Below, piece by piece: positions 3,214 to 20,188 of a stretch of 64,000 nucleotides of DNA; positions within the stretch are counted from its first letter, which is position 1; each line of letters starts with the position of its first letter. Source of the stretch: Candidatus Enterousia sp. (GTDB lineage Bacteria; Pseudomonadota; Alphaproteobacteria; Rs-D84). The DNA lies in assembly GCA_045613785.1 (NCBI GenBank), contig JAZLBQ010000007.1, positions 64,001 through 128,000 of the forward strand, given 5' to 3'. Below the pieces are notes generated by a model. It saw only the letters and a list, made by a program, of their open reading frames with translations. It was not told the origin of the DNA and searched no databases. The position numbers were made by a program, and so were the translations under genes.

Positions 3214-3217
3214 ATTG

Positions 3218-4147: not shown

Positions 4148-4800
4148 CAGAAACTAACCCTTGCACCAACCCTAAATTGCTGTGCTGTTGGGTTTAAGTC
4201 TGCAACAACATCTGTTCCTGGGTTAAACATATAGAAATATCTGTATCCAAAATCTAGTGCGAATATCGAACTAAATTCAACACTGATTCCTGCCATTGCA
4301 GCTGCTACTGGCGAAATCTTTTTATCCAGTTTTACGCCGTCGTCTGCTGAATTCCAGGACAGACCAGCACCAACGCCAACGTATGGCACAATCATCTGGC
4401 TGCGAAAGATACGATATATATTATCAATTCTTGCGTCCCAGATTGCATTTACCATGAACGTATCGCCTGTCAACGACAAGGTGTTCCATTTTGCGTCTGT
4501 GCGAACATAGTTCCCTTCGATTCTAAAAGTGTCGTAAATACGCAGTCCTAGCATTGCTTCGAATCCAGACGTATTTTTGCCTTTTACGGTCACATCGTTG
4601 TCATCGGTAAAGTTCTGCCACATTGAAAAATCATACATTCCCCCGACATAAAAACGGTGCTGGCGTGCATATGCTTCGCTGTCCAAGCCGCTTGGGGTTT
4701 CTGGAACAGGCATTTTTATTTGTTCGACACGATATGGAATTGCTGCATTTACAGTCATTGGCAAAGCACACAAAATTGGCAACCAAAATTTAATTTTCAT
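4147..4800 (-). CDS. Outer-membrane beta-barrel protein (opacity/OmpW-like)
   Basis: Signal peptide, PYVGVGAG, DFGYRY, C-terminal Phe. Confidence 0.8.
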   Translation of the reverse strand: MKIKFWLPILCALPMTVNAAIPYRVEQIKMPVPETPSGLDSEAYARQHRFYVGGMYDFSMWQNFTDDNDVTVKGKNTSGFEAMLGLRIYDTFRIEGNYVRTDAKWNTLSLTGDTFMVNAIWDARIDNIYRIFRSQMIVPYVGVGAGLSWNSADDGVKLDKKISPVAAAMAGISVEFSSIFALDFGYRYFYMFNPGTDVVADLNPTAQQFRVGARVSF

Positions 4801-4835
4801 AACTTTACACCCCTATACTTTATATCGTTTGTCTA

Positions 4836-5606
4836 TTAAAAATTCGCACGAACAGAAGCCATAATATTGCTGATGTTATCAACACCACCCCTGCGAACGT
4901 CCCAACCAAAGCCGTTTCCAATCATCATCTGATACTGATAAGCGATATCGATACCAACCAGTTCAGACAACATGATATTGAATCCCAGTGTAGCCCGTGG
5001 TGCTGCGATGACAAAGCCATCTGCACCATTTTTGCCTTCGAAATCATAGACGCCCAGTCCTGCACCGATTCCCATATAAGGAACAAATGTTCTGCGTCGT
5101 GTGATATCGCCTGATTGAACATACCGGCGTGCAAAATCAAAGTAAAGCATTCCGCCAACAGTCTGATATGTTGCCTGATGGTTTTCTAAATCAGAAAACT
5201 TGAACACGGATTCCTGAAAGTCAATTTCTGTCCGCACGTATGAAGACAGATTCCATCCCAGACCGATTTGTGTTGTATAACTGCCCGAACTTTCGTATTC
5301 GATTCCACCAAACTGTGCCTTGTCAGTTGCAAACCCCAGATTTAATCCGCCGCCCAAACGAACATACATTGATGTTGGGATAAACAGCTGGATATCGTCA
5401 GGCTGGACAGCACCTGCGATTTCATAAACTTCACGTCCCAGTTCACCAGGTGCATCAACGGGTGTTATGTCAATCGTATCACGTGCCCCAATCAAGTCCA
5501 AGCCTTCCAAGACTTCGGCCTGGAATTTTGCCGCATCATAATTTGCGTTTGCACCAAACATACTGGCGATTAGTGTTAAAACTGCAAAGCAAGAAATCTT
5601 TTTCAT
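4836..5606 (-). CDS. Outer-membrane beta-barrel protein
   Basis: Signal peptide, PYMGIGAG, DIAYQY, C-terminal RANF. Confidence 0.8.
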   Translation of the reverse strand: MKKISCFAVLTLIASMFGANANYDAAKFQAEVLEGLDLIGARDTIDITPVDAPGELGREVYEIAGAVQPDDIQLFIPTSMYVRLGGGLNLGFATDKAQFGGIEYESSGSYTTQIGLGWNLSSYVRTEIDFQESVFKFSDLENHQATYQTVGGMLYFDFARRYVQSGDITRRRTFVPYMGIGAGLGVYDFEGKNGADGFVIAAPRATLGFNIMLSELVGIDIAYQYQMMIGNGFGWDVRRGGVDNISNIMASVRANF

Positions 5607-5698
5607 AATACTAAACCTATATAAATTATACCTTCTTTTGCAATTTTAACATAAAATGAAACTTGATTCCAGTCTGTTTTATTCGTAAAGTAATAGGT

Positions 5699-6526
5699 AT
5701 GAATAACAAAAAATCAGATAAAAAAATCGCATTAGTCGCTGGGGCATTAGACTTGCCGTTTTTTACCCGTGATGCTTTGGTTCGTGCAGGTTGGGACGTA
5801 TTTATTGTTGGTCTTCAGGGGTTTGTAGATATGAATTTGAATCCCGATATGGTTGTGCGTTTGGGCGGTGGCGGTCGTGCAATACGTGAGTTTCGACGTC
5901 GTGGCATAACGAAACTAACTTTTGTGGGGTCGTTGGGGCATCCGAATTTATCTGACTTGCGACCTGATTTATGGACATTTATTACATTGTTAAAGATTAT
6001 GAAACATCAACGGGGGTATGATTCAATGGCTGTCGCATTAAACAAAGTTCTAGAATCTCAGGGATTCGAAATTGTAGCTGCCCAGGATATTGCACCAGAA
6101 TTGGCATTTGAAACACCAGGGGTTCAGACCAAGGTCAAACCCACACGCACAGATGAAAAAAACATTGCTCGTGCGATAGAGGTTTCGCACACCATTGGTG
6201 CGGCAGACATTGGTGCGTCTGTGGTTGTTGATACCCAGGTCATTGCGGTAGAGGCAGCCGAAGGCACCGCCCGTATGTTGGAACGTGTTGTTGATATGCG
6301 TTCAAACAAACGTAAATCCAGTGGCGTTTTTGCCAAGATGACTAAACCTGGTCAGGATTTACGCATTGATATCCCTGCGATTGGTGTTGATACTGTTCGT
6401 GCAGTTGCTGCGGCACACCTGCGTGGAATAGTTGTAAATACCAAGACATGTTTTGTTGTTGATAAAACTGCGGTTATAAAATTGGCAAATGAATTAGGCG
6501 TATTTATATTGGCTCTGGACGAATAG
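5699..6526 (+). CDS. lpxI: UDP-2,3-diacylglucosamine pyrophosphatase LpxI
   Basis: IALVAG, DIGASVVV, AVEAAEGT, KPGQDLRIDIPAIG motifs. Confidence 0.9.
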   Translation: MNNKKSDKKIALVAGALDLPFFTRDALVRAGWDVFIVGLQGFVDMNLNPDMVVRLGGGGRAIREFRRRGITKLTFVGSLGHPNLSDLRPDLWTFITLLKIMKHQRGYDSMAVALNKVLESQGFEIVAAQDIAPELAFETPGVQTKVKPTRTDEKNIARAIEVSHTIGAADIGASVVVDTQVIAVEAAEGTARMLERVVDMRSNKRKSSGVFAKMTKPGQDLRIDIPAIGVDTVRAVAAAHLRGIVVNTKTCFVVDKTAVIKLANELGVFILALDE

Positions 6527-6551
6527 TCGCATAATACAATCATAATAAAAA

Positions 6552-6738
6552 TAAAAAACACCGCCGTTTCCGGCGGTATTTCCGAGTGCCCCGAAAGGAA
6601 GGAAAGGAGAAAAAGAAATTGGACACTCTAAACTTATTCTTGGGGTCCAGAGTCCAGAGGAGAGAGAATGTAGGAGGGAGTCTGAACCTCTGGCCCCACA
6701 GATGTTTTCACACCTGGTCATTGGATTTCTTCCTTTGA
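6552..6738 (-). ncRNA. Putative sRNA with two CU-rich-loop hairpins and an intrinsic terminator
   Basis: Minus-strand TTGACA-N17-TATATT promoter upstream; two GC-rich stems enclosing pyrimidine loops; ACCGCCG-GAAA-CGGCGGT-GTTTTT terminator. Confidence 0.6.
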
Positions 6739-6745
6739 CGATTCG

Positions 6746-6774
6746 AATATAGTATACAAAAAACGATTTGTCAA
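6746..6774 (-). promoter_or_regulatory. Sigma70-type promoter of the putative sRNA
   Basis: TTGACA-aatcgttttttgtatac-TATATT. Confidence 0.6.
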
Positions 6775-6936
6775 GTGTTTTGTCAAAAAAAATTTTAGTA
6801 TTTGTTTTTGTGTTTGTTTTATGGATTGCTACCTAGGAAAAGCCGCTTATTGTTTTGGCGGTAAATCTGGAATAAAATCAACGTAAACTAGACGGGCGGG
6901 TTTTGTTCTAGTTAAATAAAACCAGGGAGAGAAAAA

Positions 6937-7179
6937 ATGACTCACGAAGATGTATGGCGTGCCATCGAAAGATTTGCAACAGAACATGGAATGTCTTGTT
7001 CTGGATTGGCAAAGTGTAGCGGTCTGGATCCGACTACATTTAACAAAAGTAAGCGTTGGTCCAAAGAAGGTCAACCACGCTGGCCATCGACGAACAGCAT
7101 ATCCAAGATATTATCGTCAACAGGGGCGAAGATTCAAGACTTTACCAAGTTTATTGATTCAACTGACCCTGCACGATAA
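6937..7179 (+). CDS. HTH transcriptional regulator (N-terminal domain of the alphaproteobacterial HTH-S24 repressor family, no peptidase domain)
   Basis: VWRAIERFA..SGLAK.SGLDPTTFNKSKR...RWPST.SISKIL signature; hairpin/T-tract at about 7200-7229. Confidence 0.8.
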   Translation: MTHEDVWRAIERFATEHGMSCSGLAKCSGLDPTTFNKSKRWSKEGQPRWPSTNSISKILSSTGAKIQDFTKFIDSTDPAR

Positions 7180-7266
7180 TGCTGTTTTATGACTTACCAA
7201 ACCACAGTGTTAAATCATTGTGGTTTTTTATTGGACAATCTGAAATCCATTCGCTAAACTTTGTAT

Positions 7267-7686
7267 ATGTTATCAGGCGTTCGTATTTATACATCTGACT
7301 CCGTATGGCACCAGATTTTTACCGACTTTGGTGCGACGGTTATGGACGCACCAATAACTGGCTGCATAAATTTTGATGAAATTACCCCAAATTCTGTCAT
7401 TTCAGTGCTGGAATTAAAGTCTTTATTGTTAAATGCAACGGACACAGGCAGTGTTTTGCGTCTTGTGTTTGGCGGTGATGTTTCTTTGCCAAAAATTCAG
7501 GCTCAGATAGTTGCTTTTTTGCATAAATCAGGCGGAATGACGATTGCGGAATTAAAAAATGCACTGGGGTATGCACCTGATGTTGCCACGCATTCAATAG
7601 ACAACGCAATTTATTTATTGCGAAAAACATACGGTCGTTCTTTTATAAAAAACACAAACGGGGTTTACAGACTTGGCGAACTATAA
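7267..7686 (+). CDS. OmpR-type winged-helix protein with degenerate receiver
   Basis: C-terminal LGYAPDVATHSIDNAIYLLRK...GVYRL. Confidence 0.65.
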   Translation: MLSGVRIYTSDSVWHQIFTDFGATVMDAPITGCINFDEITPNSVISVLELKSLLLNATDTGSVLRLVFGGDVSLPKIQAQIVAFLHKSGGMTIAELKNALGYAPDVATHSIDNAIYLLRKTYGRSFIKNTNGVYRLGEL

Positions 7687-8338
7687 ATTATTATCTTTTG
7701 ATAAAATCCCCAGCACCCAGGATTATGCACTGGATTTGATTGCGTCTGGTCGTGCAACTGACCATACGGCGGTGCTGGCGGCGGCTCAGTCTGCAGGGCG
7801 TGGTCGTTTTCGTCGTTCGTGGGTTTCGCATCATGGAAATTTATATGTCAGTTTTATATTTTCTTCGCCTGAACGTGATGCTCGCTTATCGTATTGTGTT
7901 GCTGTGGCGGTGGCCGAAACAATTGCATCATTTGGTGTTCATCCAACCATAAAGTGGCCAAACGATATATTGGTTGATAATAAAAAGATTTCTGGGACTT
8001 TGATTGAATATTCTGGTTCGTTTGTTGTTGTTGGTATTGGAATCAATGTAAATTCAAATCCGACTGTTGAACGCTACAAAACGACCAAGATGGATAATTA
8101 TTCAGAAATTCCAATGAACGAATTACTAAATCGCTTGATGCGTAATTTAGACAAATGGCGGCGTGCTGATTTTCGGTCTGTTCGTGCACGGTGGATGGAA
8201 ATGGCTGCATGTATAAATCGTCCTGTTAAATACCAGGGTGAACCTGCGTTATTAGTTGGAATCAACGAAAATGGTGCATTGGTTTTGCGTCGTGATACTC
8301 GTTATTTACTGGTCTGGGGGGACGAGATTGTCGTTTGA
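7673..8338 (+). CDS. birA: Biotin-[acetyl-CoA carboxylase] ligase
   Basis: STQD, QSAGRGRFRRSW, KWPND, KISGTL, GIGIN. Confidence 0.93.
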   Translation: MANYKLLSFDKIPSTQDYALDLIASGRATDHTAVLAAAQSAGRGRFRRSWVSHHGNLYVSFIFSSPERDARLSYCVAVAVAETIASFGVHPTIKWPNDILVDNKKISGTLIEYSGSFVVVGIGINVNSNPTVERYKTTKMDNYSEIPMNELLNRLMRNLDKWRRADFRSVRARWMEMAACINRPVKYQGEPALLVGINENGALVLRRDTRYLLVWGDEIVV

Positions 8339-8350
8339 AAAATTTTTTTC

Positions 8351-8461
8351 TTGACTTTTTGTCAAAAATATGATACCATACAACACATAAACAGCACAGA
8401 TTTTGCCCACAGCGTTAGTTGTGGCTTTTTTATTGCCCCACGTCCACGGACGTGGTTTTTT
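8351..8461 (+). promoter_or_regulatory. Promoter followed by two tandem terminator hairpins (leader of the phage-like unit)
   Basis: TTGACT-N17-TACCAT (8351-8379); CCACAGC-GTTA-GTTGTGG-C-TTTTTT; CCACGTC-CACG-GACGTGG-TTTTTT. Confidence 0.65.
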
Positions 8462-8486
8462 GTTTATAATCCCAAAAGGTAAAATA

Positions 8487-8903
8487 ATGCAAATGAGCAT
8501 AATAAATAATCCGGACACAACGGGCCGGTTGGCACTGCTATATAAAATTGCAAGAGTTGTCTATGCACAAACGGGAGCTGTCTCATTACCCTTGGTCGAA
8601 GCCTTTACATCAATGATAAAAAACATTGTTGATAAAACGGGAACGGACATTTCGATTGTGATTCAAGATTCGAATTTATTTCCCTCATTACGCAAATCAG
8701 ATATAAATCACAATCGGATATTTGTTTCGGCATCTAATCCAGGATTTCAAATGTGCTTGCGAACGGCAGGTCGAATTATGTCGGGCTGTTTAGGGGATTG
8801 TTGTTATGGTGCGACAAAATATCACTATGCGGATACAATACCTGATTGGGCATTATCACGTGGTTATATTGCAGACATTGATGGCATATTATTTTACACA
8901 TAA
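8487..8903 (+). CDS. SleB/Hydrolase_2-like cell-wall hydrolase, phage-derived, possibly inactive
   Basis: IARVVYAQ, FQMCLRTA, GATKYH, PDWA, ILFY pattern; AAAGG RBS before ATG 8487. Confidence 0.65.
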   Translation: MQMSIINNPDTTGRLALLYKIARVVYAQTGAVSLPLVEAFTSMIKNIVDKTGTDISIVIQDSNLFPSLRKSDINHNRIFVSASNPGFQMCLRTAGRIMSGCLGDCCYGATKYHYADTIPDWALSRGYIADIDGILFYT

Positions 8904-8919: not shown

Positions 8920-9117
8920 ATGAGAAATTTTTTCAAGGGTGGATATTTATCTGGATATCGCACCTATATAATTTCTGCAAGTGGGATTATATCTGCGGTT
9001 GCGGCATATCTGGTTGGAGATGCAGATTTATTTACAATGTTGCAGACAATATTTACATTAGCGGGGATATATTTTTTACGACGCTCTAATGAAAACAAAG
9101 GACAAGACAATGGATAA
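8920..9117 (+). CDS. Small 2-TM holin-like protein
   Basis: GYRTYI N-terminus, two hydrophobic helices, basic tail; follows the hydrolase. Confidence 0.55.
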   Translation: MRNFFKGGYLSGYRTYIISASGIISAVAAYLVGDADLFTMLQTIFTLAGIYFLRRSNENKGQDNG

Positions 9118-9766
9118 AATACCAGAAAAATTTTTAAATTCTGATGGAACATTAAACAGTGAGATGTTGGTAAAATCATACACAGAATTGGAAAAGAAAT
9201 TAAACACAATGATATCGATTCCAACAGCAGATGATACGCCCGATATTCGTCAAAAATTTAATCGTGCAATTGGTGTTCCAGAAACGCCATCGCAATATCC
9301 AACAAATGAATTATACGACGACGAGAATTTGCGTCAGAAATTTTTTGATATTGGTTTAACATCAAAACAGGTAGAAAAGATTTATGACATTGCGAATGAA
9401 TTTTTAACACCGATTGTATCAGAAATTTTTTCTGTTCAAAATCAATCCAGTGCAATAAATGAATTAAGAAATTTTTTTGGCACAGAACAAAAAATGATAG
9501 ATGCCTTAACTGCGATTGAATCATTTGGAATACGTTTTTTGCCGCACGATGCATTTGTTGAATTATCGGCTACAGCCCAGGGAATTCAAAGCATTTATAA
9601 GATGATGCAAACAATGGAACCCAGTGTTCACACTGATAAAAATTCAAATGAAAATTTATCAGATTCTGATTTGCGACGCATGATGCAAGATCCAAAATAT
9701 TGGCGTGATAATGATACAGAATACATTCGCAAAATAGAAAACGGATTTAAAAAATTATATTCATAA
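9110..9766 (+). CDS. Podophage-type capsid scaffolding/assembly protein
   Basis: IPEKF...LVKSYTELEKKL, GVPETPSQY, C-terminal LRRMMQDPKYWRD...GFKKLY. Confidence 0.75.
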   Translation: MDKIPEKFLNSDGTLNSEMLVKSYTELEKKLNTMISIPTADDTPDIRQKFNRAIGVPETPSQYPTNELYDDENLRQKFFDIGLTSKQVEKIYDIANEFLTPIVSEIFSVQNQSSAINELRNFFGTEQKMIDALTAIESFGIRFLPHDAFVELSATAQGIQSIYKMMQTMEPSVHTDKNSNENLSDSDLRRMMQDPKYWRDNDTEYIRKIENGFKKLYS

Positions 9767-9872: not shown

Positions 9873-10334
9873 ATGGGATTTTTCTTTAGAAAATCTAAAA
9901 AAGTAGAAGAAGTAAAACCAGTTGTAAAACCAGCAACAAAGAAAGCAACTGCAAAAAAACCAGCTGCCAAGAAAGTGGCTGCAAAACCAGCTGCAAAAAA
10001 AGTAGCGGCAAAACCAGTTGCAAAAAAAGTAGCTGCAAAACCAGTTGCAAAGAAAGTGGCTGCAAAACCAGTTGCAAAAAAAGTGGCTGCAAAACCAGTT
10101 GCAAAGAAAGTAGCTGCAAAACCAGTTGCAAAAAAAGTAGCTGCAAAACCAGTTGCAAAGAAAGTAGCTGCAAAACCAGTTGCAAAAAAAGTAGCTGCAA
10201 AACCAGTTGCAAAGAAAGTAGCTGCAAAACCAGTCGCAAAAAAAGTGGTTGCAAAACCAGTCGCAAAAAAAGTGGTTGCAAAACCAGTTGCAAAGAAAGC
10301 TTGTGCGAAAAAAGCATGTGCTAAAAAGAAATAA
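9873..10334 (+). CDS. Histone H1-like Lys/Ala/Pro-rich DNA-binding protein
   Basis: 12 tandem KP(V/A)AKKV(A/V)A units; TTTACT-N17-TAAAAT promoter, strong RBS, terminator at 10339-10364. Confidence 0.8.
   Translation: MGFFFRKSKKVEEVKPVVKPATKKATAKKPAAKKVAAKPAAKKVAAKPVAKKVAAKPVAKKVAAKPVAKKVAAKPVAKKVAAKPVAKKVAAKPVAKKVAAKPVAKKVAAKPVAKKVAAKPVAKKVVAKPVAKKVVAKPVAKKACAKKACAKKK
9957..10298 (+). repeat. 27-bp coding tandem repeat, 12 full copies plus a partial copy
   Basis: AAACCAGTTGCAAA(A/G)AAAGT(A/G)GCTGCA repeated. Confidence 0.95.
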
Positions 10335-10543: not shown

Positions 10544-10753
10544 ATGTCTGTTTCCATAGATAACGTATTTGTGAAACAATTCGAAGCGGATGTTCATTTG
10601 GCATATCAACAAATGGGCACAAAACTGCGTTCTACTGTTCGCAGTAAATCGGGTGTTATTGGTGCATCAACAACATTTCAAAAGGTCGGTCGTGGCACAG
10701 CCAGCACAAAATCACGTCATGGTATTGTTCCTGTGATGAATTTGAATCACTAA
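10544..10753 (+). pseudogene. Major capsid protein, N-terminal 69 aa only
   Basis: MSVSIDNVFVKQFEADVHLAYQQMGTKLRSTVR...FQKVGRG.ASTKSRHG.VPVMN is the N-terminus of Rhodospirillales podophage-type capsids; AAAGGA RBS; abrupt stop. Confidence 0.75.
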
Positions 10754-10906
10754 TAGATTACACACACCAGGTTATCCAGGATAAATTGGGGGGTGGGGCA
10801 GTATTGGGACTTTACAGAAATCTGCTGTCAGTTTTGGAAAATGCGCTGCCAAAATTGATAAATGATTATGGGCTGATAACAGAAACAGTTCCAAACGATA
10901 ATTGCG

Positions 10907-11509
10907 ATGATTACGGAGTTTTATAAATTTCTGGACACCTGGAACGACCTGTTAGGATTCAAGACCCCAAAGCATCATCGTCAGATAATGAAGTTTCTAT
11001 ATGATGTTTTGTGTGAATCACCGCATCGTGGATTGCTGATGGCATTTCGTCATTCTGGTAAATCGACGGTTGTTGGTATATTTGCGGCATGTGTTTTATA
11101 TTTGCGTCCCCAGACCCGAATTTTGATTTTATCTGCGGAAACCGGGCTGTCATCACGAATGGTGTCGCATATCAGGCATATATTGGAAAATCATCCGTAT
11201 TGTCAATCAATGATTCCTGCGAATAAAAAAGAGTGGGCTAATGGTCGCATAACTATAAATCGTCCGATTGGCATTCGTGAACCGTCTGTAATTTGCCAAG
11301 GTATTCACGGCAATATAACCGGTATGCGTGCAGATTTAATAATTTGTGATGATATCGAAGTGCCAAACACATCAAACACCGCCCAAAAAAGGGAATTTTT
11401 GCGTGAACGCTTGCGTGAACTAGATTTTATACTATCGCCCAACGGTGCAATGATTTATATTGGCACACCGCATACACATGATACTATTTATCAAACGGGG
11501 CTTGACTAG
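10907..11509 (+). CDS. Phage terminase large subunit, ATPase half only
   Basis: MAFRHSGKST (Walker A), TGMRADLIICDDIE (Walker B), YIGTPH coupling motif, then stop. Confidence 0.85.
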   Translation: MITEFYKFLDTWNDLLGFKTPKHHRQIMKFLYDVLCESPHRGLLMAFRHSGKSTVVGIFAACVLYLRPQTRILILSAETGLSSRMVSHIRHILENHPYCQSMIPANKKEWANGRITINRPIGIREPSVICQGIHGNITGMRADLIICDDIEVPNTSNTAQKREFLRERLRELDFILSPNGAMIYIGTPHTHDTIYQTGLD

Positions 11510-12147
11510 TTCAGACTGCTGACAAACGTCCGCAATTTACCCAGCAGTTCACTGCCCGCATCGCCGAACATTGGCAGATAAGTTTCATATTCTGGCATAT
11601 CGGCTTGAACCTGTGCACGAACACGTTCAGATATTGGGTTAGTAATAATTTCATTTGCACTGTCCCATAATCTGTATGCGTTGTATGTTTGGATAACCAT
11701 ATTCCATTTAGGCATTAAATCAGGACGCTTGGCCAGGGCAGCACGAATACCTGGTTGCCATTCTTCGCCGAAATCTTGGACAATTGCCAGTCCCATAAAC
11801 ATATCCAATCCTGTTTGGTCTGGTGTAAAATTATTTAATCCTTCTTCCAGTTCGTTCCATTGATTTTTGGTCAGGCTAACCGAATGAATTTCTTCATTTG
11901 TCATCATGCCACCGTATGGCAATAACTCTGGTTCGATTGAATTGATATCTGTCTTACCGCTACGCAGATTTTCGATATGTTGCACCAACAATTTACCTGT
12001 TGGCATTTCTTTCAGCTCCTTGATAACATCATCAGAAGCCTCGTTCAAGAAAACAGGATTTACAGTTGCCCAGCCACCAATAATAACATGTTCTTGGCGA
12101 TACAGATTTAACAGTCTTAGTGCGGTTGTGCTGCTTTTTGTGTTCAT
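11506..12147 (-). CDS. Hypothetical protein
   Basis: 213-aa ORF with GGAGAG RBS, third gene of the dnaB-strand block. Confidence 0.7.
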   Translation of the reverse strand: MNTKSSTTALRLLNLYRQEHVIIGGWATVNPVFLNEASDDVIKELKEMPTGKLLVQHIENLRSGKTDINSIEPELLPYGGMMTNEEIHSVSLTKNQWNELEEGLNNFTPDQTGLDMFMGLAIVQDFGEEWQPGIRAALAKRPDLMPKWNMVIQTYNAYRLWDSANEIITNPISERVRAQVQADMPEYETYLPMFGDAGSELLGKLRTFVSSLN

Positions 12148-12170
12148 TTTCTCTCTCCATAAGATTGGGA

Positions 12171-13178
12171 TTATTCGATTACAATCATCACAACCTTGTG
12201 CATTGTTTGTGCAGTAATTTTTTCTTCTGGTGAAACGATTTGTCCGTAAACTTTACCTTTGGAATCGCTGCGAACACTAACGATTTGTGCAGATACAGAT
12301 GTTTCATCATCCAACGAATCAAAGTCTGCATCAAAAGCGACGGCTAAATCACCAGGCTGTGCCACAGCGGTTGAGTCTGCAAACACATATGATTTTTCAG
12401 GGATAAAACCGCCCAGGCGTTTAGTATTAGGCATAACTGCATAAACACCGGTTTTGCCTTCTAAAGTGCTTGGTGCGACAATCATTGTTTTATCAGATTT
12501 TTTGAAAGTGATTGCCTTGCCTGTAGGTGTTCCAAAGACTGGCACCAGTTTTTTACGTGCACTGTCATATAATTTTGCACCATACAAACTGCCGTGCATA
12601 TCAATGCCAGACATTGGATTTCCAGGTTCCAAGACAGATTTAACACGTTCTTTGACCTTGCTGATTTGTTTGTTTAATTCGCCAGATTTATACAAGTTTG
12701 CAATCTTGTCGAACAAATCTTCTGCCCCCAGTGCAAATGATTTTGCCAATGGTTCGATTTCGTTTTTATAGATTTCACGCTGACCGACTTCGATTTTATG
12801 GTAAACAGACAAAGTCATACCGGCGTCTTTTGCAGCCTGTGCAATAGTTTTACCTTTTTGCTGGCGGATTTTACGTAATCCGCTACCAAAGACCTTTAAA
12901 CCGCTGTCTTCGTTATCGTTCAATCGTCTTTTGATTTCGCTTTGCCATTGACCTGCGACATCATCAGATTCTTTGATGAAAATATCGGATAATTTGCAGC
13001 CCAAAATATTGCATATATTCAGCAGTTGTTTTTGGTTCAGACGTCTGACACCTTTTTCAATTTTTGAAACAGCAGACAAAGACAATCCGGCCTTGCGTGC
13101 CAATTCTGTCATCTTCATACCATTTGCCAATCGAATATTGCGAATATTATTTGGAAAGATAATTTCTTCTTGGGCCAT
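12171..13178 (-). CDS. XRE-family regulator with two HTH domains and an S24-like C-terminus
   Basis: Two HTH_3 motifs (LSAVSKIEKG; LSVYHKIEVG), VPVFG. Confidence 0.8.
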   Translation of the reverse strand: MAQEEIIFPNNIRNIRLANGMKMTELARKAGLSLSAVSKIEKGVRRLNQKQLLNICNILGCKLSDIFIKESDDVAGQWQSEIKRRLNDNEDSGLKVFGSGLRKIRQQKGKTIAQAAKDAGMTLSVYHKIEVGQREIYKNEIEPLAKSFALGAEDLFDKIANLYKSGELNKQISKVKERVKSVLEPGNPMSGIDMHGSLYGAKLYDSARKKLVPVFGTPTGKAITFKKSDKTMIVAPSTLEGKTGVYAVMPNTKRLGGFIPEKSYVFADSTAVAQPGDLAVAFDADFDSLDDETSVSAQIVSVRSDSKGKVYGQIVSPEEKITAQTMHKVVMIVIE

Positions 13179-13253
13179 TGCAAACTCCTAAATGACTATT
13201 ACTTGACAAAATAATAGTCAATTTTTAACAACGGTGCAAGGAAATAATTATAA

Positions 13254-14819
13254 TTACAATGGCATATCGTCTGGAATTGCATCAGGGTCGATTGCTGTTG
13301 GTTCGGCATAAGCGTCATCAACAAATCCTGAATTTGATTGAGTAGGTGCTGGCTGTGCAAAATCGTTTTCACCACGAGCTTCAAAATCGTTCAGGTTGTC
13401 GAACAAACTGTAATCTCCAAAGAACGCTGTTCGCACAGTTTCTGGTCGTCCATGACGGTTTTTACCGATGATGATATCAGCCTTACCACGTGCCCGTTCT
13501 AATCTGTTTTGCCAAGAATCATGTGCTGATGAATTTACATTATTTGACATACGTTCGTTTGGATCACGGTTTTGCAGATAGTATTCTTCACGATATGTAA
13601 ACATAACGATGTCAGCGTCCTGTTCAATAGATCCAGATTCACGCAAGTCTGACAACATTGGTCGTTTATCATCACGAGATTCCACACTACGTGACAGCTG
13701 AGACAATGCGATAACAGGCACATCTAATTCTTTGGCCAACATTTTTAGACCTCTGGTAATTTCAGAAATTTCCTGAACACGATTATCGCTGTGTTTTCCG
13801 CCTGGGGATGTCATCAACTGTAAATAGTCCAAAACAATCAGTGCGATTCCGCCGTGTTTGCGTGCCAACCGTCTGGCTCTAGTTCGCATCATAGGCACAG
13901 ACATACCTGGTGTATCATCGATGAACAGTGGCACTTTGCCGATTGCAGCAGAATATTGCGACATTTTCAAGAAATCTTCATCAGTCAATTTACCTTCACG
14001 CATTGCTGTTGCGGGAACTTTTGATTGCGAAGACAGCACACGTGCCGCCAGCTGTGAAGCCGACATTTCAAGGCTGAAAAACACAACAGCACCCTTGTAA
14101 TTTTTATTTGCTCGTCCGTATGCGATGGCATTTGCGGCATTAAACGCAATATTCATTGCCAATGTTGTTTTACCCATCGCAGGTCGTCCTGCAATAATAA
14201 TCAAGTCCGAATGATGCAACCCACTGATTGAACCGTCCAGTGCGTCCAAGCCAGTTGTCAGACCTGACAATTGACCGTCTGCCTTGTATGCGATTTCTGC
14301 TTCGTTCAATGCACTTGCCAATGCGGCAGAAATAGGTGTGACCTCACGCTCAGAAGCCCCTGTTGTTGCCATTTCGAACAGTTTTTGTTCTGCCATTTCG
14401 ATTTGGCGTGCCACAGGCGTGTCCAGATCCTCGACAAAAGCCTTGCCTACGATATCCTGACCCAAGGCGATTAAATCACGACGCATTGCGTGTTCATAAA
14501 CAATACGTCCATATTGCTCAACGTTGACAACGGTTGTTCCTGCACTGGCCAACTGGCTTAGATAATCAACACCACCAACAGATTCCAAAACGCCTTGTTG
14601 GTCCAGATAGTTTTTTGCAGTAATGATATCGAACGGGATACCGGCGGCAAACTGCCGATTTGCCAACTTAAAAATTTCTTGGTGTGCGGGGTGGGTAAAG
14701 TGTTCCGCCCGCAGGAATTCACCCACACGTTCCAACGCACGATTGTCCATCAGCACAGCGGCCAACACGGCCTGTTCTGCTTCCAAGTTTTCAGGCAATT
14801 TTTTGGGGGTAAAATCCAT
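13254..14819 (-). CDS. dnaB: Replicative DNA helicase
   Basis: EAEQAVL, GRPAMGKT, FSLEM, DYLQL, LSQLSR, DLRESGSIEQDAD, KNRHG. Confidence 0.97.
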   Translation of the reverse strand: MDFTPKKLPENLEAEQAVLAAVLMDNRALERVGEFLRAEHFTHPAHQEIFKLANRQFAAGIPFDIITAKNYLDQQGVLESVGGVDYLSQLASAGTTVVNVEQYGRIVYEHAMRRDLIALGQDIVGKAFVEDLDTPVARQIEMAEQKLFEMATTGASEREVTPISAALASALNEAEIAYKADGQLSGLTTGLDALDGSISGLHHSDLIIIAGRPAMGKTTLAMNIAFNAANAIAYGRANKNYKGAVVFFSLEMSASQLAARVLSSQSKVPATAMREGKLTDEDFLKMSQYSAAIGKVPLFIDDTPGMSVPMMRTRARRLARKHGGIALIVLDYLQLMTSPGGKHSDNRVQEISEITRGLKMLAKELDVPVIALSQLSRSVESRDDKRPMLSDLRESGSIEQDADIVMFTYREEYYLQNRDPNERMSNNVNSSAHDSWQNRLERARGKADIIIGKNRHGRPETVRTAFFGDYSLFDNLNDFEARGENDFAQPAPTQSNSGFVDDAYAEPTAIDPDAIPDDMPL

Positions 14820-14838
14820 GACACAATCCTTTTCTTCT

Positions 14839-15132
14839 ATGCCCATAGTATATGAAAAAAACGCTTTTTCAACGCCTTTTTTATCGGGATATAAAACCTT
14901 GAAAATTCCGATAGTTAGTCCTGAGGGCGAACCTGCATGGCCTGAATTGTTTCCACTTTCCAGGATTCATCAATTACAAGAAACAGTTGGACATCGCCAC
15001 TTTTCGTCTCAGATGATGCTGGAATTTGTTCCGCCAAATCGCATTCGCCTAGATCCTGGAAGTTTGCATTTTTACGACAGCGAATTTGACCGTCGGTCGG
15101 CAAATCAGTCTTGGAACATTTGCGTCAGATAA
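14839..15132 (+). pseudogene. Terminase large subunit C-terminal half, truncated
   Basis: PFLSGYKTLKIPIV...AWPELFP...FSSQMML...RLDP continues the terminase sequence past GTPH; similarity lost after about 15104. Confidence 0.7.
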
Positions 15133-15257
15133 CAATTGAACGTCCAATTGGTTCAAACGCCACTGATAATGAATTACGCTGGTTTGCTGCTCAGTCAGCA
15201 CTGGTCCGTCACATAGAATCTCTTGTTTCCCAGGGCAGGGGGTGTTCAAATGTTTAA
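15099..15257 (+). pseudogene. Bbp19-like phage protein, 3' remnant without start codon
   Basis: Manual frame: GKSVLEHLRQITIERPIGSNATDNELRWFAAQSALVRHIESLVSQGRG. Confidence 0.6.
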
Positions 15258-15486
15258 CCTGGAATTTTTACGCAACAGTTGGTTTTTGATTGCATTTATT
15301 GGTGGGCTGATTTATTGGGCAGCTCGCCAAGATTTATCTGTTGCGGAACACGAACACTTTGACAGTCGTATAACCTCGCTGGAAAATCGCACGACGATAC
15401 TGGAAACTGGTATTGGTCAGATTCAGATAAAAATAGACGACATCAAAGAAGATTTAAATTTAATAAAAAGTGCCGTTATAAAGTAA
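15250..15486 (+). CDS. Small TM plus coiled-coil phage-like protein
   Basis: MFNLEFLRNSWFLIAFIGGLIYW, then heptads RITSLE...IDDIKEDL. Confidence 0.6.
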   Translation: MFNLEFLRNSWFLIAFIGGLIYWAARQDLSVAEHEHFDSRITSLENRTTILETGIGQIQIKIDDIKEDLNLIKSAVIK

Positions 15487-15517
15487 AGCACGGCCAAAAC
15501 TATAAAGGAAAAGAATT

Positions 15518-16030
15518 ATGGCACGCAGCATCAGATTCCGCCGTGGAACGGCAGTTCAGCATGAAACATTTACCGGTGCCCAGGGGGAAATCACAGTTGA
15601 CACGACAAACAACACCCTACGGGTTCACGATGGTTTAACGCTTGGTGGCACCATCTTGGCGAAACGCAGTGAAATTCCAGATTTTTCTGGGGTTGACTAC
15701 GTTATTGCCTGGCAAAACCCCAGCCCAGAAAACAATTACACCTGGTATCGGAAATATAAATCTGGTTGGGTTGAACAGGGGGGCAGTGATTTTACCCCCA
15801 GAACCATAAATGCAGGCACGGGAACAGCCTGGTATGTCCCAATGCCGGTCCCGATGAGTGATACAAAATACAACATTCAAATATCATTTGACAACGGGAA
15901 CTTGGTCCCTGCTGTGAATAATAACAATCTGACAACCACAACCCAGGTTTATTTGGGCTGTAAAAACCAGGGCAGTGCAAATGTCACCAGCCAGGTTCAA
16001 TATTGGTATGTCTGCGGAATATCTGCATAA
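15518..16030 (+). CDS. Short tail-fibre-like protein (Mtd N-terminal domain plus gp53-like C-terminal domain)
   Basis: IRFRRGT...FTGAQGEITVDT...LRVHDG.T.GG; WYRKYKSGWVEQGG...WYVCG. Confidence 0.75.
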   Translation: MARSIRFRRGTAVQHETFTGAQGEITVDTTNNTLRVHDGLTLGGTILAKRSEIPDFSGVDYVIAWQNPSPENNYTWYRKYKSGWVEQGGSDFTPRTINAGTGTAWYVPMPVPMSDTKYNIQISFDNGNLVPAVNNNNLTTTTQVYLGCKNQGSANVTSQVQYWYVCGISA

Positions 16031-16035
16031 CAAAC

Positions 16036-16058
16036 AAAACCGGGGAAACCCGGTTTTA
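16036..16058. terminator. Bidirectional terminator
   Basis: AAAACCGGG-GAAA-CCCGGTTTT between convergent genes. Confidence 0.75.
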
Positions 16059-17642
16059 CTTTAATTTTATACCTGTCCATTCCGTAACATTTTTAATTTG
16101 TTCGTCATTTTTGCTTTCTGCGACGTTTGTTGCGGCTAATGTCATCTCGTTAGTCAAACGCAATTCACGTGCAGGATTTACATAAACACACTTGAAATCA
16201 GACGGCACAACATTTATCAACGTCTGGTTTTTAACAGCCATTGCCCAGAACCAAACATCGTCCGCCAACGGTGCCAACTTTTGAAACATTGGCTGATTTA
16301 AGACGTCTTTATCCAATACGTGTGGCGGATACAAAACACCGCCAACCCCGGTCAAGAAGTTCAGATAAGACGGTGTTTTATTTTTCGTCTGATGTTCCCA
16401 CTTGTTATACGGGCGCAAATTCCCACGTTTATCAAACAATATTTTATGCGCACGCAGGCAATGAATCTGATTTGGTGTTTTCAGGTATGCATTGTATAAT
16501 TTTTCAACCAACCAATCAGGATAATAAATATCGTCATCAACGGTTATTATTATATCATTTGGAAATTCCTTTAATGACGGCACCAGTTTTGTATAAGACC
16601 GAATATCATCACACCATTTGATTGTTAAACCCTTGTCCAGAAACTGCAATACAGATTCCGGTAAATCTGCTTCTTTGTTTGGGAATTTATCCGCACCCAA
16701 CCACAAAACAATCATATCGGGTTTTAATGTCTGGGTCAGCAAAGAATACAATGTAAAATGAATATCAGACATCCGTTGTGGAAATGACGTCAACGACATA
16801 ATAATCCGTGGATTGCGTCCTGAATTTTTATCAATGCCAACATCGTTAAAATTTTTAATCTGTTCGTCAATCGCATTGCGGTCAATGTGCGGAATTGAAT
16901 CAATCTGTGATTGCCGCCAATTTGCCAACGTCCATGGATTAGAACGGTCCCACGTAATTCCACGTTTTACAATTTGTCCCGGGTTGCCGGCAATAACAAC
17001 ATTTGTTTCCACATAGTTCCGATAGCAAACAGCCCCACCTGAAACGATTGAATTATCGTGAATGTTTGCACGCTTGGTTATTCTGACGCCTTCGCCCACC
17101 CAAACATGATTACCAATAACAACAGGACCAGTTGGTGTATTCAAAATTTCCAATGTTTTCACATCCAGCACCGAATGACCATCCGATGCCCATATGTTAA
17201 TCGAATTTGAAAACATACAATCGTTTCCAATTATGCAACCACTGCGTTCTGGCAGTTTTATTGTTGTTCCATAAAATGTTGAACCTCGTCCAATTTTACA
17301 AATCTGTCCATCACCACAACGAATGTCGATATTTACATTATAAAACTTTGGCGAAGAACCGATTTCAACCAACGCATTATCATTTTCAATCGTGATTGCT
17401 GAATTTGTTGCCACGATTGGCAATTCCAGTTTAACTGTATTGTTATTACCACGGATTTTGATTTTCAAACCGTTTATGGTTTCGTTTTTACGCATTGGCC
17501 GTTCAACACCATTTTCAACAATGATAATCCGGTTGTTTTGACCAACGTTTTTCTGTGTCTTGCGATAACTGATAATCTTAACCCCTAACAAATAAATATG
17601 TCGGCGGCCATTTGGGTATCTGACTTTTTTGAAAATCTTCAT
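16056..17642 (-). CDS. Left-handed beta-helix acyltransferase fused to a glycosyltransferase
   Basis: IGNDCMFS..I.ASDGH, VIGNHVWVG, AGNPG; SLTSFPQR, TVDDDIYYP, GVGGVLYPP, DDVWFW. Confidence 0.8.
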   Translation of the reverse strand: MKIFKKVRYPNGRRHIYLLGVKIISYRKTQKNVGQNNRIIIVENGVERPMRKNETINGLKIKIRGNNNTVKLELPIVATNSAITIENDNALVEIGSSPKFYNVNIDIRCGDGQICKIGRGSTFYGTTIKLPERSGCIIGNDCMFSNSINIWASDGHSVLDVKTLEILNTPTGPVVIGNHVWVGEGVRITKRANIHDNSIVSGGAVCYRNYVETNVVIAGNPGQIVKRGITWDRSNPWTLANWRQSQIDSIPHIDRNAIDEQIKNFNDVGIDKNSGRNPRIIMSLTSFPQRMSDIHFTLYSLLTQTLKPDMIVLWLGADKFPNKEADLPESVLQFLDKGLTIKWCDDIRSYTKLVPSLKEFPNDIIITVDDDIYYPDWLVEKLYNAYLKTPNQIHCLRAHKILFDKRGNLRPYNKWEHQTKNKTPSYLNFLTGVGGVLYPPHVLDKDVLNQPMFQKLAPLADDVWFWAMAVKNQTLINVVPSDFKCVYVNPARELRLTNEMTLAATNVAESKNDEQIKNVTEWTGIKLK

Positions 17643-17656
17643 TTTGTATCCTTTGT

Positions 17657-18439
17657 TTATGCAATATTGCTCGGTTCTCCATATTGTTTAATATATTGTT
17701 CATATTTTTCTTTATATGCAGCTTCTTCTGGTCTAAAACTGTGCCACGAACCAACCCAATACACATTTTTGCGTTTTACTTGTGCAGGATTGCCTGCAAT
17801 CATTACATTATTGCCCGGCATTTCCTTTGTAACGACGGCTTTTGTTGCAACTATACAGTCGTTACCAATTTTTGCTTTTTTAAGAATTGTTGCCCCTGCA
17901 CCAATCCATACGTGGTCGCCAATGATTAAATCGTGTGGGGTGTCAACATATTCGTGTGTTTCTGAATCAAAAACCAAATGTGGAATTTCGCCCAGTCTGA
18001 ACAAAATATCCTTGGACATCAGACAGCGTTTACCAACGTGCAGTTTGCAATGATGTTGTTCAACCAAGATTTCTATAGCTACTATACATGCCCCTTCATC
18101 AATAAATATTTCAGAATTACTTATTTCTATATGGTTTCCAATATTGATGTGAACTGACTGGATTTCGCTTGATGGCATAATATGGATTTTATTATTGTTT
18201 CCACGGATATGAATATTCAGTTTTCCTCCACGCACAGATTTTCCAACAGTTATTTTATTATTATTTCCATAAATTGCGACACGGGCACGAATGGTTTCGT
18301 TATCAATATCGATTTGATTGTTTACTCCGGCATTAAGGATAATATTTTTTTGCTTTTTGCGATAAGAAAAAACCTTTATTCCTAAAAAGTAGATATGTCT
18401 GCGACCATTTTTGAAACGCACTTTTTTGAAAATTTTCAT
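17657..18439 (-). CDS. LbH hexapeptide acyltransferase
   Basis: IGDHVWIGAGATILKKAKIGNDCIV...AGNPA. Confidence 0.85.
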   Translation of the reverse strand: MKIFKKVRFKNGRRHIYFLGIKVFSYRKKQKNIILNAGVNNQIDIDNETIRARVAIYGNNNKITVGKSVRGGKLNIHIRGNNNKIHIMPSSEIQSVHINIGNHIEISNSEIFIDEGACIVAIEILVEQHHCKLHVGKRCLMSKDILFRLGEIPHLVFDSETHEYVDTPHDLIIGDHVWIGAGATILKKAKIGNDCIVATKAVVTKEMPGNNVMIAGNPAQVKRKNVYWVGSWHSFRPEEAAYKEKYEQYIKQYGEPSNIA

Positions 18440-18478
18440 TTTTTCTTCCTTTGCTTTACATGCTTACGCATAAAGCGT

Positions 18479-19240
18479 TCATGATTTTTGTGTCGGGATA
18501 AAGTGTGAAAATATTCGTTCCAACCAAAATTGTAGTTTCTTTCCTGTGGACACTTTATCCTGGTTATGTGCAGTGATATATTTAAATTCCAGGTCACCAT
18601 TCGCCCTGTGTTCGCCAGGTGTTGGATACAGTGGCACAGTTTCAATTCCAAATTTCCACGCACAATAGTTGTATGATAATTGGTCTCTCTTTGAATGTTT
18701 TTCAACAAAATACCACCACAGTTCCAATAAATGCTTTATTTTGTTATGCTGTCTGAACATAACATTTGTTTCTGCCAGTCCCTTATTTGATGGATAACCA
18801 TCACGTTGTAGAATTCGCATTTGCGTGTCAACGACATTGTCGATATCAATTTTGAGCTTTTTTATTATTTCTGCTTCGTCAAAGATACAGTTGCGTTGTG
18901 GATGCAATGGGATACTTATTAAAACATCATCTGCAATCAGTTTATTGACCTTGCTGAAAATATTAGAATTATTCACAGAAATATTCCCGTCCAGCCACAA
19001 ACTATATTCATATTCAGGAAACAGTATGTGTGCATTTATTTTGTGCCAGCGTGCATTTTTGACATTTGTTGATTTGTTATATGCCAACGGTCTGACATCC
19101 CAGTGTTCGTATTTTCCACGTTCAATCAGATCTTGATTGTCTGTAAACAATACATAGTCCCAATTTGGATTTACATATTTATGTACCGGCACATTATCGT
19201 AACCGCCAGTAATACAAGTATAGCAAACTTTCTTGCCCAT
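18479..19240 (-). CDS. DUF616/TOD1-like glycosyltransferase
   Basis: VCYTCITGGYD, SLWLDGN, HPQRNCIFDE, RDQLSYNY. Confidence 0.8.
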   Translation of the reverse strand: MGKKVCYTCITGGYDNVPVHKYVNPNWDYVLFTDNQDLIERGKYEHWDVRPLAYNKSTNVKNARWHKINAHILFPEYEYSLWLDGNISVNNSNIFSKVNKLIADDVLISIPLHPQRNCIFDEAEIIKKLKIDIDNVVDTQMRILQRDGYPSNKGLAETNVMFRQHNKIKHLLELWWYFVEKHSKRDQLSYNYCAWKFGIETVPLYPTPGEHRANGDLEFKYITAHNQDKVSTGKKLQFWLERIFSHFIPTQKS

Positions 19241-19249
19241 CTCTCACAC

Positions 19250-20188
19250 CTATTTTGCGTGTTTTATGCGGTGAATAAATCCAACCGGCAGAAAACCAAA
19301 AAGTTCAACCCGATATTTTAATTCTGCTGCACCGCCAAATGTATCTGTCATACGGTATATTTTTATAATCTGTAATCCCAGGATACGCAATTGAAATATC
19401 GGCTTATATAATAATTTTTTTTCTGGTATCTTTGGCATACGTCCCAACCAATTTTGCAAGATTGGAAATAGTTTTTCGTCTTCGATATGTTGCAACAAGA
19501 ACGCTTTGTTCAACACTTTTTGTGCAATAGACTTCTTTACAAATGGACAACCTAAACGCAGTATCATCAACGGTTCGTGATACATTAAATGGTATGTTTC
19601 GTCCAAATATTTTTCTGTATCTAAGTATGCTGAAAATTTATAGCCACGTCGAACCGCCCGATTTGTTAATTGAAATTCATATTTTGCACAAATAACAGAT
19701 TTTCCTGCTTCTTTTTTTACACTGCAAATAAAATCGTTAAAAAATTCCGCTGTTGCAACGTGTTGACTTAACCCCACAAACCACGATTGCAGATGTTCAC
19801 AAATATTTTTTTCACGGTATGAAATCAACCCTGTTAAATCAACCCCACGTGATTCCAGGTCTTCTACAATGGGCTTCAAATCAAACAGTGGTCCCAACAC
19901 AGAATCATTGACCAGATAAACCCAATCATATTTTTCTAGTAATTTATTATCACGGGCCCAGATATACGCACGCTTATACGAACCAAAATCATATTCGCCG
20001 TGACGCACCGCATTTGCGTATAAAACATTTGGTATTTGCCTTACCTTTTCAATTTCGACATCGGTCGCATCATTGTCCATAACAAAGACAATATCCCCCA
20101 ATCCTGACAAATGATTTAAATAATACAACAAACTATCATCGATAATTGCATCTTTGTCATAACCTGCAAACAAAAATAAGCGTTTCAT
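19250..20188 (-). CDS. Rhamnan synthesis F-like polysaccharide protein
   Basis: LFAGYD, HGEYDFGSYKR, LVNDSVLGP, HLQSWF, PFVKK. Confidence 0.8.
   Translation of the reverse strand: MKRLFLFAGYDKDAIIDDSLLYYLNHLSGLGDIVFVMDNDATDVEIEKVRQIPNVLYANAVRHGEYDFGSYKRAYIWARDNKLLEKYDWVYLVNDSVLGPLFDLKPIVEDLESRGVDLTGLISYREKNICEHLQSWFVGLSQHVATAEFFNDFICSVKKEAGKSVICAKYEFQLTNRAVRRGYKFSAYLDTEKYLDETYHLMYHEPLMILRLGCPFVKKSIAQKVLNKAFLLQHIEDEKLFPILQNWLGRMPKIPEKKLLYKPIFQLRILGLQIIKIYRMTDTFGGAAELKYRVELFGFLPVGFIHRIKHAK

Follow-up and report, generated by a model that had tools for sequence, protein, structure and literature searches.

The window analysed in this work is a stretch of 64,000 nucleotides from Candidatus Enterousia sp. 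(Alphaproteobacteria, order Rs-D84; assembly GCA_045613785.1, contig JAZLBQ010000007.1, positions 64,001 to 128,000), and it contained a phage-derived gene cluster in which the large terminase (TerL) is encoded by two separate genes, terN and terC, with the operon of the replicative helicase dnaB between them on the opposite strand. The closest described enzyme is the T7-type large terminase (gp19 family; NF033889; solved structures 4bij and 8dgc), which has the same ATPase motifs and an RNase H-like nuclease, and the gene set of the cluster is also like that of T7, with a scaffold, tubes A and B, and a portal. Unlike T7-type TerL, the enzyme of Rs-D84 is specified by two genes with separate starts, with a promoter-like motif between them where they are adjacent, and it is shorter overall (about 480 residues compared with 586). 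Some actinobacteriophage annotations list separate terminase genes for the ATPase domain and the nuclease domain.

Viriforms of the type of the Rhodobacter capsulatus gene transfer agent (RcGTA) resemble the locus in that head, tail and packaging genes of phage origin occupy a constant position in the chromosome, are inherited vertically under purifying selection and are interleaved with host genes; no integrase or replication genes were found near the Rs-D84 cluster. The RcGTA cluster is siphovirus-like and of HK97 type; the Rs-D84 element differs from it in its podovirus-type, T7-like ancestry and its split terminase, and is known here from its genes alone. The gene transfer agent (GTA)-like element of Faecalibacterium prausnitzii (FpGTA) was described, in the available passages of its paper, as a compact operon of a gut bacterium that is thought to form podovirus-like particles, and was called the first GTA-like element of podovirus-like morphology (PMC12946183). 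It belongs to a different phylum, consists of different genes and is backed by packaged-DNA evidence, unlike the Rs-D84 element, and neither Rs-D84 nor T7-like elements appeared in the same passages (PMC12946183). Candidatus Enterousia is placed in an uncultured order, all members of which have reduced genomes, and the Rs-D84 genome paper contained no mention of phage, capsid, terminase or gene transfer (PMC12306168). In the literature searched, the phrase “split terminase” was not found, and “T7-like prophage” in combination with Alphaproteobacteria led to one unrelated paper only, with nothing on this cluster.

The explanation that best fits the findings, given a probability of about 0.75, is that the region represents a recently damaged copy of a domesticated T7-like cluster that is inherited vertically in Rs-D84, an order of animal-gut bacteria with genomes of about 1 Mb, and whose intact form most likely packages DNA in the manner of a GTA. 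In this view, the large terminase of the order is produced as two polypeptides, TerN (about 200 residues) bearing Walker A, Walker B and motif III, and TerC (about 280 residues) adding the next beta-strand, the remainder of the ATPase and then the RNase H-like nuclease. The fission occurred first, and the dnaB-xre-orf213 operon was inserted between the halves later, in the family holding Enterousia, with the dnaB promoter now situated within the first codons of terC. The intact cluster would most likely build DNA-packaging particles for its host, as a gene transfer agent does, and two deletions in this genome took the capsid-to-tail part and the nuclease-plus-portal part.

Two terminase chains and the position of the break

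The terN gene (10907..11509, plus strand) was intact and encoded 200 residues. Its product matched phrog_38 (terminase large subunit; positions 272-459 of 760, E 4e-42), NCBIfam termin_lrg_T7 (NF033889; positions 1-190 of 500, 229 bits, cut-off 150) and Pfam Terminase_6N (E 4.8e-6), and a profile built from terN aligned to the solved T7-type terminases 8dgc and 4bij over residues 19-211 (E 1e-35). The ATPase features of the T7-type large terminase were all present, namely Walker A (RHSGKST), Walker B (IICDDIE) and motif III (IGTPH); these motifs were invariant in 12 and in 20 sequences, and all 46 invariant columns of alignment A1 were kept by the window copy. As stated in the preliminary description of this DNA, the chain ends a few residues after YIGTPH (...YIGTPHTHDTIYQTGLD*), and its stop shares four bases (CTAG) with the convergent open reading frame (ORF) at 11506-12147.

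The terminase sequence resumed 3.3 kb further on from its own ATG at 14839, again as described, in a frame reading MPIVYEKNAFSTPFLSGYKTLKIPIV...AWPELF that stops at 15132 after 97 residues (terC, 14839..15132, plus strand). This second frame does align to terminase: it matched phrog_38 at positions 468-539 of 760 (E 1.7e-5), the stretch next after the terN match. It is a stub made of the first ~90 residues of the C-terminal chain, 7 unrelated residues and a stop, and it covered only positions 3-90 of the 282 in the profile. The earlier view of this piece as the nuclease half did not hold in the window, where the frame ends before the nuclease motifs WDPS, ETNG and HDDGLD. The C-terminal RNase H-like nuclease was present in relatives, whose terC contained these motifs, with D103, E168, D247 and D248 invariant, and showed matches to terminase-nuclease folds. 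A split shared with an intact nuclease half, which had been named as a check, was found in relatives (terC of 279-295 residues in the 69 Enterousia loci with both halves complete) but not in this genome.

When TerC was folded alone, an RNase H-like domain was predicted with confidence from around residue 77 onwards and residues 1-24 were disordered, and its best structural match was 8dgc, followed by terminase nuclease domains. Aligned to the solved T7-type terminases, residues 30-64 of TerC corresponded weakly to 258-292 and residues 165-234 to 411-479. The nuclease fold begins near residue 77-97 of terC, and not at the break, which had been described as falling on the ATPase/nuclease boundary. 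In fused homologues, IGTPHTxxTIY is followed by a variable linker of ~8-15 residues and then by PFLxGF..L.IP, and the fission therefore fell in that linker. The break is located about 10 residues past motif III, inside the ATPase fold and away from the boundary between the domains. A terminase split by an intron or intein was considered and rejected, as each half has its own ATG and a promoter-like motif lies in the spacers of adjacent halves; no intein-like insertion was found in the terN and terC alignments, and an Rfam scan of one adjacent-halves spacer (G022) gave a match at chance level only (E 0.43).

TerN and TerC of a relative with a complete cluster (G006) were co-folded in three runs with three controls. 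The interaction prediction score from aligned errors (ipSAE) was 0.88, 0.90 and 0.88, compared with 0.00 for the best of the three controls, a pass to which likeness to solved terminases may have contributed. Of 157 solved complexes, 116 attained this ipSAE mark, as did 2 of 215 mismatched pairs. The runs had at least 93% of contacts in common, and the predicted local distance difference test (pLDDT) of the partner was 79-80. The interface was formed by residues 45-54 and 188-203 of TerN with residues 13-25, 33-37 and 57-66 of TerC. Residues 45-54 of TerN are the strand leading into Walker A, and the first TerC strand was placed beside it, which locates the break within the ATPase fold, shortly past motif III. 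Strand complementation is predicted to bring the two chains back together as one enzyme, and the heterodimer would be expected to be active.

The split across Rs-D84 and the operon between the halves

The split was common to the order. Of 151 Rs-D84 genomes sampled, 140 contained terN and 137 contained terC (both halves 135, neither 9, terN only 5, terC only 2), and one of the terN-only genomes (G028) had only a weak match belonging to another terminase. All strong terN matches were in open frames of 197-251 residues; longer frames (477-603 residues) gave weak matches only (E ~1e-9 to 1e-13) and belonged to other terminases. The single polypeptide of T7-type TerL was represented by two ORFs for every strong match in the sample. 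Within Enterousia, the arrangement terN, orf213-xre-dnaB, terC was kept in all 80 species loci as far as the contigs reach, the halves were 3264-3377 bp apart in each of the 69 loci where both are complete, and gene order was identical in all same-genus genomes compared (16 regions from 15 genomes).

The content of the gap varied beyond this genus. Of the 25 genomes from outside Enterousia that had both halves on the same contig, 6 had them less than 600 bp apart and 19 had them 1.8-15.6 kb apart, and in one genome (G058) terC was located upstream of terN. Three genomes of families f4 and f5 had the halves adjacent and yet as two ORFs, with spacers of 174-236 bp. The gap contained dnaB with xre and orf213 in genera g13 and g18, and further genes as well in g11 and g12; dnaB was inverted relative to xre in g14 and stood alone and co-directional in g15, while nothing lay between the halves in g17. 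The orf213 and xre genes were conserved beside terN in six further genera of family f1, and the portal gene lay between the halves in family f3. In one f3 genome (G029; L032, G029:C1:116000-135900, 2598-8559), terN and portal-terC were separated by ftsZ (583 residues) and three unknown ORFs, the gap there holding another essential gene. The adjacent-halves spacers (L033 9694-9929, L037 3274-3487 and L038 4233-4406, minus strands) shared a CTTGACAA-N17-TAtAAn motif, and in two of them a long leader rich in pyrimidines (CCTTCCTCCTCTCCT-like) came after it.

Outside the order the enzyme was fused. A strong single terminase match (E 1e-40 to 1e-92) was obtained in 42 of 298 alphaproteobacterial genomes outside Rs-D84, nearly always in frames of ~480-670 residues (outliers 937, 436, 399 and 230). 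The terN and terC matches were contiguous in the six regions inspected, three of which showed the full canonical order of portal, scaffold, capsid, tubes, terminase and endolysin. A profile search of 1.84 billion representatives returned fused proteins of 457-505 residues as close relatives. Relatives in the phage collection were below 60% identity (best ~36%, T7-like vibriophages), and terminase was annotated as a single gene in the two phage records inspected. An unsplit gene in relatives had been named as a difficulty for a two-chain terminase; all strong matches within Rs-D84 were split, and the fused form was found outside the order. From these comparisons, the fission is older than the dnaB insertion, and the TerL of Rs-D84 is encoded as two proteins.

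A structural-only cluster of ~12 kb was also observed in a 1.1-Mb alphaproteobacterial genome outside Rs-D84 (L134, G266:C4:68000-87900, ~2.5-14.6 kb). It was located between host lnt and macB and contained, in order, an S24 repressor, small ORFs, portal, scaffold, capsid, tubes, a fused 487-residue terminase and a cell-wall hydrolase. Podovirus-type domesticated clusters may be much wider than Rs-D84. Comparison of the xre regulator with this S24 repressor beside the fused-type cluster of G266 showed no significant similarity (E 0.17).

The minus-strand operon between the halves in the window contained dnaB (13254..14846; NF006606, 615 bits, cut-off 540; TIGR00665, 507 bits), xre (12171..13178), which encodes a 335-residue regulator with a double helix-turn-helix of XRE/CI type (Pfam HTH_3 in two stretches, E 2.2e-21; phrog repressor families), and, as the last gene, orf213 (11506..12147), which had no family in four libraries and no usable match in an ESM Atlas look-up. 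The dnaB of the window was the sole DnaB_C match in the 1.04-Mb, 96.5%-complete genome. Its true start is likely the second ATG (14819), and most relatives align to dnaB from residue 10; the distance of about 20 bp to the second terminase half given earlier is correct for this second ATG.

A candidate sigma-70-like dnaB promoter, TTGAAA-N16-TACTAT (14872..14845, minus strand), lies within the first terC codons, as previously reported. The promoter scan was weak alone (20 sites compared with 13.1 +/- 3.5 in shuffles), and the promoter is supported because of conservation and not because of the scan. The motif or a near variant was found at the same place in the 23 relatives displayed, and terC third codon positions over the promoter were 0.89-1.00 conserved in 71 Enterousia loci, compared with 0.28-0.72 at most downstream third positions. 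A same-genus genome without terC (G072) had a similar motif upstream of dnaB. This synonymous-site conservation supports a promoter inside terC, and the part of the terC stub that holds it appears to be still constrained. In many Enterousia species (L100, L108, L092 and others) the start codons of dnaB and terC overlap within the palindrome CCATGG; with no intergenic DNA, each promoter must lie in the coding sequence of the other gene. The locus would offer a clear example of a domesticated phage gene with a host promoter inside it.

The layout had been compared with herpesvirus UL15, a terminase gene in two exons with opposite-strand genes nested between them, which is spliced to give one protein. 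The likeness is one of analogy only, in that opposite-strand genes lie between terminase parts in both; unlike UL15, the Enterousia halves have their own start codons and are separate proteins.

The preliminary description proposed that dnaB entered a previously whole terminase at the boundary between two domains, that the two-chain enzyme was tolerated and that the remnant was locked in by the essential gene. The single copy of dnaB, its location between the halves throughout the Enterousia examined as well as in six other genera of the family, and the overlap of its promoter with terC agree with this proposal. However, the same two ORFs occurred adjacent or around other genes, without dnaB between them, in families f2, f3, f4 and f5 and in genus g17 of f1, and the split can not be ascribed to dnaB. 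The idea that the pieces cannot be excised also failed. G072 (same genus, other species, 97% complete) had kept dnaB-xre-orf213 and had lost terN, terC, capsid and portal, all five family-f1 genomes without terN were also without a capsid match, and the window itself is partway through such a loss, with two flanking deletions in progress. Insertion with lock-in is quite unlikely on these grounds.

Selection, deletion and function of the cluster

The cluster of G006 was complete and contained endolysin-like orf138, scaffold, a Lys-rich protein, capsid (291-residue frame; PF19821, E 7e-72), orf77, tail tubes A and B, orf115, the fibre-anchor gene and terN, followed by orf213-xre-dnaB on the other strand and then by terC (282 residues), portal (411 residues; PF12236, E 5e-82), small ORFs and an Mtd_N fibre. 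The ratio of nonsynonymous to synonymous substitutions (dN/dS; pairwise Nei-Gojobori within the genus) was 0.088 for terN, 0.19 for terC, 0.072 for capsid and 0.073 for portal, compared with 0.084 for dnaB, 0.084 for xre and 0.15 for lipB, all at a median dS of 1.4-2.1, which is saturated. Intact frames over saturated divergence rule out neutral decay in relatives, and the substitution pattern indicates purifying selection on the cluster in the genus. The suggestion that a two-chain terminase is tolerated was borne out by the 80 loci, by the ratios of the two halves and by the co-fold. If both pieces were inert debris of a decayed prophage, here and in relatives, the split would be functionally meaningless. 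The window agrees with such decay and was the only place where it was seen (capsid 69 of ~275 residues, terC 97 of ~282, tail tubes A and B and portal gone), but full-length frames in relatives across species with saturated synonymous sites, dN/dS of 0.07-0.19 with invariant catalytic motifs, and both halves in 135 of 151 genomes of the order leave this explanation barely credible.

The chromosomal position between lipB and host genes was the same in 80 of 80 species loci, and the divergence of the cluster tracked that of the neighbouring host genes. No integrase was found on the contig of the window (G000), nor any closer than 70 kb to terN in G069, a genome in a single contig, and integrases elsewhere were on other contigs or more than 70 kb away; no replication genes were found beside the cluster, the flanks being host genes. 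A live temperate T7-like prophage, with early genes elsewhere or supplied by a helper, would be in keeping with the fused-terminase clusters of the 42 other alphaproteobacterial genomes, some of which may be true prophages, and with the CI/LexA-type repressor beside one of them. It is very unlikely for the Rs-D84 cluster, given the constant position, the interleaved essential host genes, the lack of an integrase nearby, the shared divergence and genomes of only 0.7-1.1 Mb. Fixed position, purifying selection, interleaved host genes and the absence of a nearby integrase form a pattern that is more GTA-like than that of a prophage or of debris. A structural cluster inherited vertically and kept by selection, as in a GTA, was found in relatives and not in the deleted copy of this genome.

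The two deletions were defined against the closest relative (G015). The first, with its junction at 10745..10753, took out about 3,964 bp present in G015 (blastn against L039) and removed the capsid from residue ~70, orf77, tail tubes A and B, orf115 and most of tail183. The second, with its junction at 15090..15120, took out about 1,924 bp present in G015 and removed terC from residue ~90 (the nuclease domain) through the portal gene. In run X1, the best holder of the window and possibly its source sample, both junctions were bridged by unitigs (54-nt, 10721-10774, and 15075-15128) at depths of 38 and 41, compared with 41-56 alongside. Contigs ~99% identical in runs from other studies (X5, X7 and X20) continued from the junctions into sequence absent in the window; those of X5 and X7 ran into the intact form at the first deletion, and at the second, loose ends leading into the intact form were located at 15099 in both X5 and X20 and also at 15104 in X5. 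The bridging unitigs of X1 together with the intact contigs of the other runs show the deletions to be real, recent and polymorphic. The terN gene and the 97-residue terC stub are leftovers in this genome and should be annotated accordingly, a modest practical outcome as far as the window alone is concerned. Three stages in the loss of the element were observed, namely intact, half-deleted (this genome) and gone (G072).

The survival of these pieces could also be explained if TerN, with the N-terminal module of TerC, had been co-opted for a host task unrelated to particles, for example as a replication-linked DNA translocase. This would account for the linkage of terN to dnaB and for its survival after the deletions, and the survivors in the window are exactly TerN and the TerC segment of ~90 residues by which the ATPase was completed in the co-fold. 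All invariant residues are kept by terN, and metatranscriptome contigs of X20 covered 11095-12064 and 15099-15648 only; they span the convergent gene pair and were not counted as expression, since DNA carry-over is possible. Near-identical strains are still intact, the deletions are therefore recent, and survival may be mere lag. Moreover, terN was lost with the capsid in 5 of the 5 genomes lacking it, terN and terC co-occurred with capsid and portal elsewhere, and no lineage long keeping terN without capsid and portal was seen among the 151 genomes sampled. Co-option of this kind was considered unlikely.

Several points weigh against the preferred reading of a domesticated, DNA-packaging cluster. 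The window copy cannot be functional, and a particle or GTA function was inferred from genes. A small terminase was not recognised in the scan of the G006 cluster, and a search for T7-type RNA polymerase in five genomes was empty, as were its positive controls. The co-fold pass may stem from likeness to the solved T7-type terminases (8dgc, 4bij), which is likeness and not binding, and the saturated dS makes the dN/dS values rough. In a 208-column terN tree, the Rs-D84 rows needed two changes and formed one group in 21% of bootstraps; no well-supported branch forbade a single Rs-D84 group, and a single origin of the split was neither demonstrated nor rejected by this tree. One genome of family f6 (G023, 99% complete) contained terN, and terC was not found in it at E <= 1e-15. 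Its portal gene was located directly after terN (L034 9240-11316), and the genome may represent a lineage with the nuclease chain lost or replaced.

Should particles be formed by the intact cluster, Alphaproteobacteria would have a gene transfer agent of T7-like type. The host would then be an uncultured, genome-reduced gut lineage thought to be reliant on other cells, in which DNA exchange could offset genome decay. The order-wide two-gene TerL serves as a natural experiment, a packaging ATPase cut after motif III yet kept by selection, and the cut bears on the communication between terminase domains. A further-reaching version holds that Rs-D84 carries a previously undescribed podovirus-type GTA with an obligate two-chain TerL joined by beta-sheet complementation inside the ATPase, that the gap has repeatedly captured essential host genes (dnaB in one family, ftsZ in another) and that helicase expression and particle production have become entangled at the level of transcription; this version is tentative and was given somewhat less than an even chance.

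Other genes of the window

The first gene of the cluster was orf166 (8403..8903, plus strand), a probable endolysin (cell-wall hydrolase). The window copy had no family match, and the assignment is based on its homologues (query orf138), which adjoin terminase or scaffold in other families and orders; Pfam Hydrolase_2 was found in two of them (L034 11821-12225, E 3.9e-7; L134 13782-14297, E 3.2e-20). An intact T7-type scaffold (capsid assembly) protein followed at 9089..9766 on the plus strand (Pfam Phage_T7_Capsid, E 2.7e-10), and its gene was present in relatives wherever the contig extends that far. The next gene (9873..10334, plus strand) encoded a Lys/Ala/Pro-rich repeat protein resembling histone H1, with HC2 and H1-like matches that were weak and below cut-off, and a Lys-rich protein gene was located at the same position in G006. 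The product, 153 residues consisting almost entirely of AKKPVAKKV-type repeats, is encoded between the scaffold and capsid genes, an arrangement also seen in G006 and G029, and may be a DNA-condensing internal protein.

The stub of the major capsid protein (10544..10753, plus strand) contained the first 69 of ~275 residues and matched Pfam Phage_capsid_2 at positions 1-66 of 293; capsid frames in relatives were 271 to at least 291 residues long. It was followed by a 46-residue C-terminal stub of the tail-fibre-anchor gene tail183 (10786..10926, plus strand), recognised by tblastn and from the ORF table. Beyond terC, orf87 (15223..15486, plus strand) encoded a small protein with one hydrophobic stretch and a weak phrog_736 match; it follows the portal gene in all relatives and is possibly a lysis or membrane protein. 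A tail fibre with an Mtd_N domain was encoded at 15518..16030 on the plus strand (Pfam Mtd_N, E 4.3e-15; phrog_9648 tail protein).

The outer flanks consisted of host genes, with LpxI and LipB on one side and glycosyltransferases, Frr, UppS, CdsA, RseP and BamA on the other. Directly after the tail-fibre gene came several glycosyltransferase and hexapeptide-transferase genes in a row (16056-20188, minus strand), and among them a gene of 528 residues had a partial internal duplicate (~17756-18439, 37% identity over 242 residues).

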